Assembly (NCBI GenBank): GCA_041498715.1 | Contig: JBGQIW010000004.1 | Coordinates: 1-58,014 of the forward strand | Length of the DNA stretch: 58,014 bases | Reading direction: 5' to 3' | Source of the DNA: Gemmatimonadota bacterium | GTDB taxonomy: Bacteria; Gemmatimonadota; Gemmatimonadetes; Gemmatimonadales; GWC2-71-9 | In this document: positions 5,572 through 10,993 of the stretch, piece after piece | Layout: the number at the start of each line of letters is the position of its first letter | How positions within the stretch are numbered: position 1 is the stretch's first letter | Made by a program: the position numbers and the translations under genes | The notes under the pieces: model-generated | What the model was told of the DNA's origin: nothing | Seen by the model: the letters and a program-made list of their open reading frames with translations, nothing else | The model's database searches: none

Positions 5572-6789
5572 CTACTGGAAGATGTACGACGCGCCCAGCG
5601 CGAAGGTGACCTGGTCCTTGTGCAGGGTCCCGTCGGTGGCGGGGAAGACCAACAGGTTCGAGCGGTCGTAGCGGATCTCCGGCCGGATGAGCACTGCATC
5701 CCACCGCTTGATGTTCAGCGTGAACGTGCCGCTGCCGAACTTCTGCCCGGTGTTCACCGGGAAGCCCAGGACACCCGAGGTGCGAGCGCCGTCTTTGTCG
5801 TCCATGTAGTCGCCGCGGAGGGCGACGGTCAGGATCGGGCTCACGTCGACCGCCGCCCAGAGCCCCGCAGCCCACCACTTCGCCGTCTGCCCCACCGCCG
5901 GCAGGTCCTTTTCCTCCCCGTAGTCGCCCTGCAGGTTGAGCGTCGCCTTACCGACCTTCCGGGTCACCAGGAGGTCCAGCCCGTACCGGTTCCCGCTGGG
6001 CGTCACCCCGGCCACGGCGGCCTTCTCGTTGCCGAAGTACCCCACCACTCCGATCGTCGTCAGCGTGTCGGGCGTGATCCCCAACCGACCCATGAACGAC
6101 TTCTTGGAGTTGTTGTCCTGCACCACGTCCCACCCGTTGATCAGCGCCAGCTCGACGTCCACCTTCGGATCCGGCTTCGCATCCAGCCGCAGGCCCGTCA
6201 TGGTGAAGTTCTCGACGTAGATGAACTGGTTGCCCTCGGAGAGGTTGGGGTTGACCACGTCCTCGATCACCTCGAGCCCCAGCAGCGTCACGAACTTGCC
6301 GGCCTTGAACTGGACGTACTTCCCGGCGCCCGCCGGAATGTTGACCGTCGCGTAGGCCTGCTCGACGTCGCCGTTGGTCCCCAGGTTGAGCCCGGCGGAC
6401 TGGAGCACCGGCGCGTTCTGCCCGAACAGCAGATCGACGTGGGCCCCCGCGTCCCACTTGTCGGTGGCCACCGGCTTGTCCAGCGTCAGCTTCGCCGCGT
6501 TCAGCTCGATCTGATCGTGGAACCGGTCGTAGAGCCGGCCGACGATGGGACTCCCCGCGCCACCCGTGTGCCGGGTCGAGTACGTGTAAGACGTGGTCAC
6601 GTACCCGCTGAGGTTCACCTTCGACCCGGCCGGGGCCGCGGGCGCCGCCGCCTTGGCCGTGTCCGCCTTGGCGGTGTCCGCCCCCGCCTGCTTCGCCGAG
6701 TCTGCCGGAGCCTGAGCCGCGATTGGCTCGACTCCGGCGGTTACCGCTGCGAGTGCGATCAACGTGACGAACCCGCCGAACCGATGCAT
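5572..6789 (-). CDS. Outer-membrane beta-barrel porin (DUF1597/BBP2-like; this family is often found next to ammonium transporters)
   Basis: Signal peptide, GKFVTLLGLEVI, NGWDVVQDNN, PEIRYD, aromatic C-terminus (YIFQ). RBS GGAGG upstream of the ATG at 6789. Confidence 0.8.
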   Translation of the reverse strand: MHRFGGFVTLIALAAVTAGVEPIAAQAPADSAKQAGADTAKADTAKAAAPAAPAGSKVNLSGYVTTSYTYSTRHTGGAGSPIVGRLYDRFHDQIELNAAKLTLDKPVATDKWDAGAHVDLLFGQNAPVLQSAGLNLGTNGDVEQAYATVNIPAGAGKYVQFKAGKFVTLLGLEVIEDVVNPNLSEGNQFIYVENFTMTGLRLDAKPDPKVDVELALINGWDVVQDNNSKKSFMGRLGITPDTLTTIGVVGYFGNEKAAVAGVTPSGNRYGLDLLVTRKVGKATLNLQGDYGEEKDLPAVGQTAKWWAAGLWAAVDVSPILTVALRGDYMDDKDGARTSGVLGFPVNTGQKFGSGTFTLNIKRWDAVLIRPEIRYDRSNLLVFPATDGTLHKDQVTFALGASYIFQ

Positions 6790-6843
6790 GGATCTGTCCT
6801 CCAGCCTGAGGGTGAACGGCGCCGCGGGAACCTCCCTACGGCC

Positions 6844-6886
6844 ACAACGAAACCGCCCCCGCGACGGCAGCGTGCGCGAGGGCGGT
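6844..6886 (-). terminator. Terminator-like hairpin in the porin leader
   Basis: 12-bp stem ACCGCCCUCGCG/CGCGGGGGCGGU followed by UUCGUUGU (weak U tract), about 55 nt before the porin start. Confidence 0.5.
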
Positions 6887-6929
6887 GAGCACGGGGTCGG
6901 GCCAAGGCCCGGGTGACCGGGTGGACCGA

Positions 6930-7019
6930 TCACGGCGACTCCGCGCGGCTCAGCCGCAAACGCCTACGGTTTCGGGCGACCCGGGCACGCGGCTCGGGAC
7001 GCCGGACAATTCTGTTCAT
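6930..7019 (-). CDS. Putative Arg-rich leader peptide MNRIVRRPEPRARVARNRRRLRLSRAESP (29 aa)
   Basis: ATG about 27 nt downstream of a -10 box; 11 Arg codons including AGA, CGA and AGG; followed by the hairpin above. Confidence 0.45.
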   Translation of the reverse strand: MNRIVRRPEPRARVARNRRRLRLSRAESP

Positions 7020-7046
7020 AGCTACCTGGGTAGAACGGACGACCGC

Positions 7047-7075
7047 AGCTTACGGCTTGCCGCTAGTCTTGTCAA
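7047..7075 (-). promoter_or_regulatory. Sigma70 promoter for the porin leader
   Basis: TTGACA-N17-TAAGCT on the minus strand. Confidence 0.75.
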
Positions 7076-7155
7076 GGGATTCTTGCACAATCCGCACAAC
7101 TGACAATGCAATCTTGATGATTTGTTAACGATCTCATTTGAGGGAGTGCTCATAT

Positions 7156-7172
7156 TGTGCTGATCATGCACA
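7156..7172. promoter_or_regulatory. Palindromic operator candidate TGTGC-N7-GCACA
   Basis: Dyad 6 bp upstream of the amt -35, in the AT-rich spacer between divergent promoters; two GCACAA direct copies at about 7086-7098. Confidence 0.4.
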
Positions 7173-7178
7173 CTGAGC

Positions 7179-7207
7179 TTGACAGCCATCCGCCATTTAT
7201 GTATTCT
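7179..7207 (+). promoter_or_regulatory. Sigma70 promoter for amt-glnA-glnK
   Basis: TTGACA-N17-TATTCT. Confidence 0.78.
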
Positions 7208-7239
7208 CCCCTCACAGGCGACCACCCGAACCGGATTCC

Positions 7240-7338
7240 ATGGACCCTCTTGGCGGCACCCAATCCAAGGCCCGAAACGCCGGGGCGCGCGCTCTTCGGA
7301 GCGCGCGCCCGGTGTCGCCGCGCGGGAGCTTCGGGTAG
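7240..7338 (+). CDS. Putative leader peptide MDPLGGTQSKARNAGARALRSARPVSPRGSFG (32 aa)
   Basis: ATG...TAG between the promoter and the terminator; the last codons overlap a sequence complementary to the terminator 5' arm. The SD is weak. Confidence 0.4.
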   Translation: MDPLGGTQSKARNAGARALRSARPVSPRGSFG

Positions 7339-7355
7339 TCCTCCGCAGGTTGCGG

Positions 7356-7399
7356 AAGCCCCTGCGCCCGGACGGGGAGCGCAGGGGCTTTGCTTTTTT
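7356..7399 (+). terminator. Intrinsic terminator (attenuator) upstream of amt
   Basis: 12-bp stem AAGCCCCUGCGC/GCGCAGGGGCUU plus UGCUUUUUU, ending about 24 nt before the amt start. Confidence 0.8.
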
Positions 7400-7422
7400 G
7401 AACCGCTCAGCCCAGGACCGGC

Positions 7423-8934
7423 GTGAGACGCCTCACCTTGCTTACCGCCCTCCTCGCTCTCGCTACGCCGCTCACGTTGGCGGCCCAGGCGGCGCCACAC
7501 GGCGCGGCCATCGGCGTGGCCGCCACCGACCCGGCGGCCGCGAATGCCGTCGCGCTCAACCTGGCGTGGATTCTCATCGCCGCGTTCCTCGTCATGCTCG
7601 TGCAGGCCGGCTTCGCCTTGGTCGCCACCGGTTTCACCCGCGCCAAGAACGCCGGTCACACCATGACGATGAACTTCACGGCGTACGCCATCGCGATGCT
7701 GGTCTACTGGGCGGTCGGTTTCGGGCTGCAGGGCGGAGGCGTGGGCGTCCTGAGCACCCTGGGCGGCTACGACCGGCTGCACCAGGAGCTGGTGCTGACG
7801 TTGTTCGGCCGCCGGTTCGGCCTGGTGGGCACCACCGGGTTCTTCCTGGCAGGCGCGGCCTCCGCCGCGCCGATCCTCGCCTACTTCGTGCTCCAGATGG
7901 TCTTCATGACCACGGCGGTAACGATCCCGGCGGGGGCCCTCGCCGAGCGTTGGAAGTTCTCCGCCTTCGCCGTGTTCAGCGTTCCCACCGCGGCGGCGAT
8001 CTATCCGATCTACGCCAACTGGGTCTGGGGCGGGGGATGGCTCTCCCAACTGGGTGTCAACTTCGGGCTGGGGCATGGCCACGTGGACTTCGCCGGGTCG
8101 TCCGTGGTTCACATGACCGGCGGCGTCATCGCTCTGGCTTCCTGCTGGCTCCTCGGCGCGCGCCGCGGCAAGTACAACTCCGACGGCACGGCGAACGCCA
8201 TCCCCGGGCACAGCATCCCGATGGCGCTGGCCGGAACGCTGATCCTGATGTTCGGCTGGTTCGGCTTCACCGCCGGGGCCACGCTGGACGCCACCGATCT
8301 CAGAATCACCGTGATCGCCGCCAACACGATGCTCGCCAGCGCGGCCGGCTGCGTCGCGGCGATGCTGTACATGTACGCCCGCTCCGGCAAGCCCGACCCC
8401 TCGATGCTCGCCAACGGAGCGCTCGCAGGTCTGGTCGCGATCACGGCGCCCTGCGCCTTCGTCGCGGCGCCGGCCGCGGTACTGATCGGCGCCGTGGCGG
8501 GCGTGCTGGTGTGCATCTCGGTCTTCTTCGTGGAGCGCCGTCTTCGGCTCGACGACCCCGTGGGCGCGATCTCCGTCCACGGTGTGAACGGCCTGTGGGG
8601 GGTGCTGGCCCTCGGTCTCTTTGCGGACGGCACCTACGGGGCCGGCTTGAACGGCGTGCGCGGGAACGTGACCGGCCTCTTCTACGGCGACCCGGGCCAG
8701 CTCGTGGCCGAGGCGATCGGCGGGCTCACGAACCTCGTCGCGGTCGGCACGATGACCGTCCTGGCCTGGAACCTCGCGGGCCTCCTGGCCCGAGGGCACC
8801 GGGTCTCCGCCGAGGCCGAGGAGATCGGACTCGACCTGCCCGAGATCGGCGCGCTGGCCTATCCCGACACGACCGACCTGGCCGCAGCCACCGTGTTGAC
8901 TCACACCCCCGGCGCGAAGCGAGCCGCTGCATGA
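7423..8934 (+). CDS. amtB: Ammonium transporter (Amt family) with signal peptide
   Basis: [57 protein letters not shown]. Confidence 0.93.
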
Positions 8935-8995
8935 CGCCGGGCCCGTTCCGCCCGTTCCCGTTCACCCCTTGCGAACCGTTTTTCTTGAGGATGCG

Positions 8996-10453
8996 ATGGC
9001 GACTACCGTGAAGGCAGCTACAGTGCGCCGCTCGGCCCCGGCCGAGGTGAAGAAAGTGCTGGACCTGATCAAGCAGAAGAACATCCAGGTCGTGGACGTG
9101 AAGTTCGTGGACCTGCCGGGGACCTGGCAGCACTTCTCCATCCCGGCGGCCACGCTGGACGAGGACATGATCAAGGATGGCCTCGGCTTCGACGGCTCCT
9201 CGATCCGCGGCTTCCAGGCGATCAACGAGAGCGACATGCTGCTCATGCCGGACGCGTCGACGGCGTTCGTGGACCCGGTGCTCACCGTGCCCACGCTCTC
9301 GCTCACCTGCGACGTGTACGACCCGATCACGCTCGAGCCCTACTCGCGTGACCCCCGCTTCATCGCGTTCAAGGCCGAGGAGTATCTCAAGACCACCGGG
9401 ATCGCCACCGCGTCGTACTGGGGACCGGAGGCCGAGTTCTTCATCTTCAACTCGGTTCGGTTCGACCAGAACGCCCACGAGGGCTACTACCACATCGACA
9501 GCGAGGAAGGGATCTGGAACTCGGGCCGGAACAGCGCCCCGAACCTCGGCCACCGGCCGCGTCACAAGGAGGGCTACTTCCCGGTCCCGCCGGTGGACCG
9601 ACTTCAGGACGTGCGGTCGAAGATCATGCTCGCCATGATCGAAGCGGGAGTGCCGGTCGAGGTTCAGCACCACGAGGTGGGCACCGCCGGGCAGGCGGAG
9701 ATCGACATCAAGTTCGGTCCGTTGGTGCAGACGGCCGACCGGCTGATGATCTACAAGTACATCATCAAGAACGTCTGTCACAGCCTCGGCTTTACGGCGA
9801 CGTTCATGCCGAAGCCCCTGTTCGGCGACAACGGCTCGGGCATGCACTGCCATCAGTCGCTCTGGAAGGGCGACACCCCGCTCTTCTTCGATGCCAACGG
9901 ATACGCACTCATCTCGGAGACCGCCCGGTATTACATCGGCGGGCTCATCAAGCACGCGGCGGCGCTGCTCGCCATCTGCGCGCCGACCACCAACAGCTAT
10001 CGCCGCCTCGTCCCCGGCTTCGAGGCACCGGTGAACCTGATGTACTCGGCGCGGAACCGCTCGGCGATCTGCCGGATTCCGGTGTACTCCACCAACCCCA
10101 AGGCCAAGCGGGTCGAGTTCCGGGCGCCGGACCCGGCCGCCAACCCCTACCTGGCGTTCGCCGCGATGCTCATGGCCGGGCTGGACGGGATCAAGAACAA
10201 GATCGAGCCGCCAGCCCCGATCGACGAGGACCTCTATGAGATCGACGACGAGCGGAAGAAGCTCATCAAGCAGGTGCCCGGCACCCTGACCGAATCGCTG
10301 GACGCGCTCGAAAACGACCACGCGTTCCTGCTCGCCGGGGACGTGTTCACCCAGGATGTACTCGATGCCTGGCTGAGTCTCAAGCGGAAGGACGTCGCGG
10401 CGGTTACCCTGCGGCCCCATCCATATGAGTTCTTCATGTATTACGACGCGTAG
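8996..10453 (+). CDS. glnA: Glutamine synthetase type I (GSI-beta)
   Basis: [49 protein letters not shown]; the adenylylation-site Tyr is retained (DLYE). Confidence 0.97.
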
Positions 10454-10506: not shown

Positions 10507-10600
10507 GTACTGTCTTGCGGCGGGCGGGGCGATCCGCTAGCTCATAGTGGAGCGACAGCCGCCGGCCCCCCGAGACCGCCACCTTCACGGAGTTGGACGG

Positions 10601-10993
10601 ATGAAACTGATCACCTGCATCATTCGGCCCGAACGCCTCGCCGAGGTGAAGGCCGCGTTGTTCCGGGCCGGCGTCACCGGCATCTCCATCAGCCGCGTGA
10701 GCGGGCACGGCGGGGAGCGGGACCTCGTCGAGCACTACCGCGCGTCGTCGATCGTGCTCGAGTTCCGGGAAAAGGTGAAGATCGAGATGGCCGTGTCCGA
10801 GCCGTACGTGGAGCCCACCATCAACGCCATCCTCGCCTCGGCCCGGACCGGTGAGGTGGGAGACGGCAAGATCTTCGTACAGCCGCTCGAGCGCGTCATC
10901 CGCATCCGGACCGGCGAGTCGGACAACGCGGCCCTGACACCGGTCACGGCCGACGAGGTGCAGCGCAACGCGCTCGAGGCCGCCGGCAAGTAG
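10601..10993 (+). CDS. glnK: PII nitrogen regulatory protein (Thermus/Deinococcus-type GHGGE T-loop)
   Basis: [29 protein letters not shown]; 130 aa. Confidence 0.92.

Follow-up and report, generated by a model that had tools for sequence, protein, structure and literature searches.

What decides whether an RNA polymerase that has started ahead of an ammonium transporter gene also goes on to transcribe it? This question is raised by a contig of a Gemmatimonadota bacterium (GenBank assembly GCA_041498715.1, contig JBGQIW010000004.1), of which positions 1 to 58,014 were analysed (the window; all coordinates are counted from its first letter), and in which a 185-nt leader with its own upstream open reading frame (uORF) and an intrinsic terminator stands directly before the amt-glnA-glnK operon. 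The explanation favoured here, and considered reasonably probable, is that this leader is a ribosome-dependent transcription attenuator of a whiB7/trp-like kind, where translation of the uORF would decide whether transcription ends before amt or proceeds into the operon. An earlier description of the same DNA, made from its letters (the sequence-only reading), had also proposed a switch at this place, and its picture of an attenuator with a uORF, a terminator and a strand able to compete with that terminator is supported, while its first helix, its choice of glutamine and lysine codons and its GatCAB route to asparaginyl-tRNA have not.

The 3' part of the leader forms an intrinsic terminator at 7352-7399 on the plus strand, consisting of a stem-loop (7352-7393, -31.8 kcal/mol) followed by a U-rich tract, TTTGCTTTTTT, which runs to 7399 and leaves 24 nt before the amt start. 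A simple terminator scan missed this structure because the loop limit of the scan is 8 bases. Further upstream, and within codons 15-24 of the uORF, lies a 12-bp GC hairpin with a UUCG loop (7283-7310, plus strand, -28.2 kcal/mol). A check of the sequence confirmed that all of the leader elements listed in the sequence-only reading are real and correctly placed, namely CCCGAA at 7271-7276 with a second copy at 7225-7230, TTCGGG at 7330-7335, and CGCGGGAGCTTC at 7321-7332 with its complement GAAGCCCCTGCG at 7355-7366. The leader region as a whole has a minimum free energy (MFE) of -109.9 kcal/mol (z = -3.9), which 1 of 200 shuffles equalled, and the arrangement is more than a product of chance because it is conserved in relatives.

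These relatives were collected in several ways. A BLAST search with the leader gave credible homologues in 8 of 17 genomes of the same genus and no credible homologue outside the genus, and an exact-pattern scan provided further copies in 7 of 37 genome-contig matches and 8 of 39 metagenome matches, the other exact-pattern matches being discarded as chance matches since they have no terminator. Once 8 duplicates had been dropped, 15 distinct leaders remained, which were aligned as A1 and are the basis of all 15-sequence counts given here. Within the genus, the downstream gene, as called from N-terminal sequences (with coordinates confirming the call for G008), is amt in the window, G009 and G005, and glnA in G015, G008, G003, G013 and G016. 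The leader of G003 (L013) shows a deletion homologous to 7262-7322, so that it is left with the promoter, the start codon and the terminator but has neither CGA-AAC nor the GC hairpin and little of the antiterminator strand; this is either an assembly artefact or a natural variant that terminates constitutively or is otherwise altered. When the leader was compared with its own genome by BLAST, a self match alone was returned, together with short GC-rich chance matches.

The RNAalifold consensus contains the GC hairpin and the terminator only, with no multi-helix junction, and pair probabilities averaged over the alignment likewise revealed no conserved helix besides the GC hairpin. The latter shows compensatory changes at pairs 62/89, 72/79 and 73/78 and a mean pair probability of 0.83-0.99 for 11 of its 12 pairs, the outermost (62/89) reaching 0.61. 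The consensus retains all 9 pairs of the terminator stem, with a compensatory change from UA to CG at 148/171 in two sequences.

The uORF extends from the ATG at 7240 to the TAG at 7336-7338 on the plus strand (7240-7338) and comprises 32 codons and a stop, encoding MDPLGGTQSKARNAGARALRSARPVSPRGSFG. Its reading frame is conserved in a way that its product is not. The start column holds ATG in 10 leaders, GTG in 3 and TTT in 2, always exactly 30 nt 5' of xCC-CGA-AAC, and an in-frame stop is found in a single column in 14 of the 15, this column being TAG in 10 and TAA in 5; in L017, a 2-nt deletion leads to a stop five codons earlier. Columns 1-118 are free of insertions and deletions in 14 of 15 sequences, even though the stretches between conserved blocks diverge widely, and TAG and TAA are exchanged among close relatives (L068 and L077), as are ATG and GTG. 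The peptide is poorly conserved apart from R-N and the codons fixed by the hairpin, and close pairs differ mostly non-synonymously, which fits a regulatory uORF and not a functional small protein. Conservation of start, stop and frame is what a ribosome-dependent attenuator is expected to show, and the same is true of the intrinsic terminator that intervenes.

The strand that would compete with the terminator is located at 7320-7332 on the plus strand (GCGCGGGAGCTTC, segment 2 of the sequence-only reading) and ends 3 nt before the uORF stop codon. That it can pair with the 5' arm of the terminator, as had been claimed, is borne out by pairing counts and by duplex energies. Sliding the partner by 1-3 columns lowers the share of alignment cells that pair from 91.5% to 35-70%, and none of 500 shuffles attains 91.5%; the duplex with the 5' side of the terminator amounts to -24.3 kcal/mol in the window and to -15 to -24 in homologues, and it beats dinucleotide shuffles in most lineages (z down to -3.0). 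A compensatory change is seen at pair 111/137, where 9 sequences have GC and 5 have CG. Folding of partial transcripts that stop short of the terminator 3' arm gave the antiterminator in 11 of 15 cases, the exceptions being the window, L015, L009 and L017. A ribosome footprint at the stop codon abolishes the antiterminator in such folds, an outcome that follows by construction. When the complete leader is folded at equilibrium, the terminator prevails in almost every state, which means that the switch, if real, must be kinetic.

Within the uORF, CGA-AAC (Arg12-Asn13; 7273-7278, plus strand) is the only invariant codon pair; all 15 leaders have it, 41 nt separate it from the antiterminator strand downstream, and it is proposed as the sensing or stall site. 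It is the conserved part of the Q-S-K-A-R-N stretch that had been read from the uORF in the sequence-only reading and that is indeed present there. Among the Arg codons of 308 long ORFs in this genome, CGA has a share of 4.6%, and the tRNA-Arg species found in the incomplete assembly are ACG and CCG only, so that CGA would be read by wobble.

The same codon pair has also been found, in frame, in leaders of two other genera. A covariance model (R1) run over 151 genomes of the family gave strong matches from the window genome (G000) and G008 only, and its weaker matches were mixed: one, in G134, is a true distant homologue, four (L123, L125, L133 and L136) are unrelated attenuators with a similar terminator, and the remaining ones were rejected as chance matches of terminator-like or coding sequence. 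In G134, found in this search and not by orthology, the glnA leader has a uORF, MNHTSTIHPNATPPRRVQLQRNWRLPLIEPSGPWPE, with an in-frame CGA-AAC. An orthology-guided sample of other genera of the family, covering 40 glnA-upstream and 15 amt-upstream regions, supplied further cases without use of the motif. The amt leaders of G074 and G141, both missed by R1, were recovered by amt orthology; the former has an ORF with an in-frame CGA-AAC, and the latter has a uORF, MNTQIQHSPIRNFGTRRNRDAPHDRTRRVWA, with two in-frame copies. The glnA leader of G141 carries CGA-AAT in frame, followed by a similar GC hairpin. The leaders of G134, G074 and G141 can no longer be aligned to the window leader, and they keep the uORF with CGA-AAC (CGA-AAT in the glnA leader of G141).

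In the proposed mechanism, transcription would start at about 7214, and the uORF would be translated as RNA polymerase advances. A ribosome reaching the stop codon would cover 7320-7332, and its front edge would not extend to 7352, the first position of the terminator stem, so that the terminator could form and transcription would end before amt. If the ribosome were held earlier, or if the uORF were not translated, 7320-7332 would be free to pair with 7355-7367, and this antiterminator would permit read-through into amt, glnA and glnK. The likeliest place for a hold-up would be CGA-AAC, 4 nt before the GC hairpin; with this spacing, a ribosome that meets the hairpin would have the invariant codons in its P and A sites. 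The hairpin itself may act as a pause hairpin for RNA polymerase or as a barrier for the ribosome. The signal would be the supply of Asn- and/or Arg-tRNA, with CGA-AAC setting the sensitivity to this supply, which would fall when glutamine is scarce. Arginine receives glutamine-derived nitrogen via carbamoyl-phosphate synthetase, and asparagine would be made with glutamine-derived nitrogen via AsnB, and in this way the switch would report nitrogen status. More tentatively, and as a proposal that could well prove wrong, the rare CGA (read only by inosine-adenosine wobble) and AAC before a very stable hairpin may constitute a dedicated nitrogen gauge. It would render the leader ribosome acutely responsive to Asn- and/or Arg-tRNA supply, and translation would thereby gate amt, glnA and glnK of the Gemmatimonadaceae via antitermination.

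Several observations weigh against this attenuator. In two leaders, L014 and L113, the start column is TTT and an in-frame GTG lies at the predicted transcription start; uORFs that begin at the predicted transcription start occur in other genera of the family, and a leaderless start is therefore possible for these two. The Shine-Dalgarno sequence of the window uORF is weak (GGA). Stop codons number 1 in frame 0, 5 in frame +1 and 2 in frame +2, which hardly sets the uORF frame apart, and their avoidance was dropped as a coding test since stops are too few in every frame. The covariation of the antiterminator rests on one pair, and because most of its pairs never vary, the pairing statistics are to be taken as support and not as proof. 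In the partial transcript of the window, 7225-7231 paired with 7330-7336, plus neighbouring pairs, narrowly beats the antiterminator (2.1 expected pairs), and the antiterminator is weak in L009 and L017. Moreover, no conserved anti-antiterminator was detected by RNAalifold, by averaged pair probabilities or by duplex energies compared with shuffles, from which it follows that an untranslated leader should read through and not super-attenuate. There is no run of regulatory codons, the window having the single CGA-AAC pair, and the ORF of the G074 leader has no stop before amt and runs into it. Finally, CCGAAAC and both arms of the GC hairpin are conserved nucleotide by nucleotide, even at third codon positions, which fits a binding site too, and in G134 CGAAAC occurs three times in 300 nt, with two of the copies outside the uORF.

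The last two of these points lead to the rival that survives best, although it is considered rather unlikely, namely that the leader RNA binds a ligand, as a new riboswitch, or a protein, for instance an RNA-binding regulator. In this case CCGAAAC and the GC hairpin would be the sensor that chooses between antiterminator and terminator, and the ORF would be incidental or secondary. The otherwise unconserved uORF peptide, the second CCCGAA copy at 7225-7230 and the weak Shine-Dalgarno sequence would also agree with such an RNA, which would be new, as no known family matches. However, a start that varies only between ATG and GTG, a stop that varies only between TAG and TAA, and variable linkers of strictly constant length without covarying helices speak against such an RNA. 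In leader ORFs, CGAAAC is always in the CGA-AAC frame (in g1, G134, G074 and, twice, G141) and once gives way to the synonymous CGA-AAT. G134 and the amt leader of G141 have either no GC hairpin or a different one; the structure that is supported consists of two simple hairpins with no multi-helix junction. The conservation of start, stop and frame thus renders a riboswitch less likely, and binding of CGAAAC by an RNA-binding nitrogen regulator or a ligand would be an alternative that is equally novel.

Known regulatory RNAs were searched for as well. As the sequence-only reading had anticipated, no Rfam family matched at gathering score anywhere in the window, and the same was true of 12 related loci. 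In a sensitive Rfam scan, the best sub-threshold candidate was rnk_pseudo (24.9 bits, compared with a cut-off of 55), which aligns to the terminator only, and no covariance-model match was obtained for Rfam families including the T-box and the glutamine riboswitches. ANTAR/NasR-type antiterminators carry hexanucleotide loops on two short hairpins, of which the second overlaps with the terminator. Hairpins of this type were not found in the leader, whose only conserved hairpins are the terminator itself and the 12-bp stem closed by a loop of 4 nt, no search for an ANTAR protein having been made.

Next in order is the trp-type attenuator in the form in which it was first drawn, with a helix between 7271-7276 and 7330-7335, stalling at Q, K, R and N codons that frees segment 2, and a report of glutamine that is based on GatCAB; this is judged improbable. 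Its pairs can be drawn in the window, but a 1:2 helix of CCCGAA with UUCGGG, which had been described as part of the switch, is not conserved: it is absent from the RNAalifold consensus, and its 3' partner varies without compensation. In the window MFE structure, TTCGGG(T) is paired with the upstream copy at 7225-7231 and not with 7271-7276, and complementarity between the first 60 columns and segment 2 remains at shuffle level (z -2.0 to +1.8). A conserved 1:2 helix over the regulatory codons, which would be the anti-antiterminator of a four-segment trp-type arrangement, was rejected on the basis of RNAalifold, averaged pair probabilities and duplex energies. The codons fare no better: a rare CAA Gln codon does stand at uORF position 8, but Q and K codons are not conserved among the leaders and are missing in most homologues, which speaks against them as sensors.

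What can be said of tRNA charging divides the remaining claim in two. Glutaminyl-tRNA synthetase (GlnRS) above cut-off was absent from a search of the window genome, which is 80% complete, and it was found in 2 of 15 same-genus genomes and 9 of 26 overall; GatB is present in the window genome and in 24 of the 26. (The 26-genome set includes the unpublished genomes G004 and G007, and no conclusion depends on these two.) Gln-tRNA is therefore probably made by GatCAB, and a report of glutamine by this route is conceivable for Gln codons. It is not upheld for Asn, as the window genome encodes an asparaginyl-tRNA synthetase (466 bits), and so do 22 of 26 relatives. There is, in addition, an AsnB-type enzyme that hydrolyses glutamine (347 bits in the window genome; 5 of 5 genomes), AsnA being found in 0 of 5, and with the synthetase and the AsnB-type enzyme both present, Asn-tRNA need not derive from GatCAB. 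A link between GlnRS and the leader was considered and set aside: within the genus, glnS is found in none of 8 genomes that have the leader and in 2 of 8 that do not, which is too few cases. Among close relatives, G002 (L159) and G185 (L150) have a glnA leader that is short (about 70-90 nt), with neither uORF nor terminator, and a promoter of the same type. GlnRS was found in G002 and in one other genome of the genus, again too few cases for a connection.

Public RNA libraries touch on the leader to a limited extent. Three public runs hold the region at 5-6% of sampled words, as contigs only and at a depth of 2-5. One RNA-library contig of 165 nt spans 7247-7411, and another bridges 7329-7524 across the terminator, which is weakly compatible with both terminated and read-through forms; the support is weak because DNA carry-over is not excluded. 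Such contigs cannot show starts, ends or regulation, and the uncovered parts and a joint between 7505 and 8919 (27 letters on one side) are not interpretable. The 165-nt contig and the strong terminator after a conserved short ORF could be claimed for the least probable rival, in which the terminated leader is itself the product, as a trans-acting small RNA of about 185 nt (rnTrpL reportedly being an example of a small RNA derived from an attenuator) or as the mRNA of a 32-residue arginine-rich peptide, with constitutive leakage as the source of amt read-through, but the peptide is conserved only at R-N and the hairpin-fixed codons, the 24-nt gap between terminator and amt shows no promoter-like site, and the leader is always directly upstream of amt or glnA, which means that read-through is needed to express these essential nitrogen genes.

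The attenuator favoured here would be preceded by a conventional promoter. A sigma-70-like site, TTGACA-17 nt-TATTCT (10/12 matches), lies at 7179-7207 on the plus strand and is kept in 9 of 9 homologues with the same -35 box, the 17-nt spacer and a TAT(T/C/G)(C/A)T box; transcription is predicted to start near 7213-7215. Directly upstream of the -35 box, a 17-bp palindrome, TGTGC-N7-GCACA (7156-7172), has its centre some 50 bp ahead of the predicted start, and GTGC-N7-GCAC is found in the equivalent place in homologues; it is probably a transcription-factor site. A distal inverted repeat of the TTGC-N7-GCAC type (7082-7098) adjoins the predicted promoter of a divergent porin gene, a promoter-like site found by motif scan on the minus strand (7106-7079). 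For the distal repeat too, copies of the GTGC-N7-GCAC type are conserved in homologous upstream regions (L009-L017), and it is probably a nitrogen-regulator site. In length and symmetry both repeats resemble the TnrA/GlnR boxes of Bacillus, and 17-bp inverted repeats of the GTGC-N7-GCAC type also precede amt or glnA in other genera.

The genes at the locus were identified by their Pfam domains. The first gene under the proposed control, amt, encodes an ammonium transporter (7423-8934, plus strand; Ammonium_transp, E = 7.6e-100), and it is followed on the same strand by glnA for a type I glutamine synthetase (8969-10453; Gln-synt_C, E = 1.4e-132, plus Gln-synt_N) and by a glnK/glnB-like P-II gene (10547-10993; P-II, E = 8.3e-25). 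On the other side of the 630-bp intergenic region, the divergent gene on the minus strand (5572-6933) encodes an OmpL-like beta-barrel porin (BBP2, E = 3.3e-60). Because this porin gene uses the same regulatory region as amt, a nitrogen-regulated outer-membrane channel is suggested.

Other leaders of the family may be compared with this one. In the four unrelated attenuators returned by the covariance model (L123, L125, L133 and L136, from other genera), the antiterminator strand lies over the last uORF codons and is followed by the stop and then the terminator, and the best partner of the terminator arm overlaps the uORF end in 4 of 4. This shared 3' layout in four unrelated leaders points to uORF-terminator switches as a common device in these bacteria. 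The antiterminator strand here mimics the sequence of the terminator 3' arm (GCGTGGGA as compared with GCGTGGGGG). L123 and L133 precede a gene for a 4HBT thioesterase, L136 one for a HAD hydrolase, and L125, whose uORF is Cys-rich (MTRNCTLCCCRHGLSLAHRDRMRGM), a 39-residue ORF. A genome-wide screen of G000 for a terminator with an antiterminator mimic and a short ORF gave 96 candidates, mostly intragenic, among which there was no convincing second attenuator and no leader with a codon run; the sole ARN-containing ORF of this screen (on C1) was rejected, as it lies inside a gene of the opposite strand.

The glnA genes of the sampled family genomes are also preceded by leaders of other types. 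A second leader motif, CGATGCTGGCTGGGG, follows a GACCTC-type hairpin and precedes glnA in 7 of 40 genomes (L151 of G032, L152 of G129, L153 of G122, L155 of G141, L156 of G092, L158 of G156 and L160 of G029). No Rfam family matches this motif, which is read as R-C-W-L-G in one frame of a long uORF in G122 and G141, and it may be another unmatched regulatory leader. A third type, found before glnA in at least 12 of 40 genomes (L168-L170, L173-L178, L180, L182 and L189), has an ATG 5-6 nt after a TACCTT-like -10 box (TACCTTCCCGCATGCC), an arrangement that suggests a leaderless uORF. Among the leaders of this type whose sequence was read, a terminator-like hairpin of the GAGCCCGGCG...CGCCGGGCTC type is present before glnA in L177, L178, L180 and L182 and lacking in L174-L176, and similar hairpins occur in L166, L181 and L188, which do not have the exact -10/ATG motif. 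With at least two other unmatched types of glnA leader in neighbouring genera, the family is suited to a study of how fast such switches turn over.

How, then, does the proposed attenuator relate to what has been described? The known layers of control over ammonium uptake and glutamine synthetase include NtrBC with sigma-54, GlnR/TnrA, NtcA, P-II proteins, adenylylation, glutamine riboswitches and small RNAs. To our knowledge, no ribosome-dependent attenuator of amt or glnA genes has been reported, and a search of full-text literature outside subscription journals found no leader-peptide attenuator for glnA or amt and no attenuator or riboswitch of Gemmatimonadota. The class of mechanism is known; what would be new is its use for amt and glnA, a sensor made of a single rare-codon pair, and its presence in Gemmatimonadota. 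If true, the reading would give nitrogen assimilation its first leader-peptide attenuator, with a codon pair and not a codon run as the conserved sensor. If confirmed, it would also provide a translational read-out of nitrogen status in a widespread and little-studied soil phylum, as well as a compact test case for the combination of a single rare-codon pair and a hairpin as a sensor.

The glutamine riboswitches, which comprise the glnA RNA and Downstream-peptide motifs of Rfam and act on translation in cyanobacteria, resemble the proposed system as cis-acting RNA control of nitrogen-assimilation genes that reports glutamine or nitrogen state. They differ in that a terminator and a uORF would be at work here, and no match to them was seen at E <= 10 in an Rfam scan of 6780-7480. 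The classical leader-peptide attenuators of amino-acid operons, trpL, hisL and pheL, share with this leader an ORF and a terminator, and a competing antiterminator, a pause hairpin in the ORF and a stop at which a ribosome masks the antiterminator strand would have their putative counterparts here. Unlike them, it has no tandem runs of a single codon and no conserved 1:2 helix, and its operon serves nitrogen assimilation instead of making a single amino acid.

Two mycobacterial systems offer further comparisons. In the polycysteine leaderless short-ORF attenuators of mycobacteria, the codon content of short ORFs at the 5' ends of operon transcripts reportedly sets the signal (bioRxiv 10.1101/834739). 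Related Gemmatimonadaceae leaders are alike in having a Cys-rich uORF (L125) or uORFs that start at the predicted transcription start, while the window uORF, with a 5' untranslated region of about 26 nt and no Cys codons, differs from these attenuators. In the whiB7 leader of mycobacteria and other actinobacteria, efficient uORF translation leads to a Rho-independent terminator, whereas poor translation or stalling leads to an antiterminator and read-through; a single codon suffices to set the starvation that is sensed, and the uORF sequence differs among species (PMC10274678). The Gemmatimonadota leader has a variable uORF too, and it would follow the same uORF-terminator logic, with a single codon pair as the putative sensor. 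The two differ in phylum and in target, which is a transcription factor for whiB7 and amt, glnA and glnK here, and they have no sequence similarity. The alanine enrichment that is a hallmark of whiB7 is absent from the present leader, which has instead the invariant rare CGA-AAC followed by the 12-bp GC hairpin. If the attenuator is confirmed, uORF attenuators of the whiB7 kind would exist far outside the Actinobacteria.

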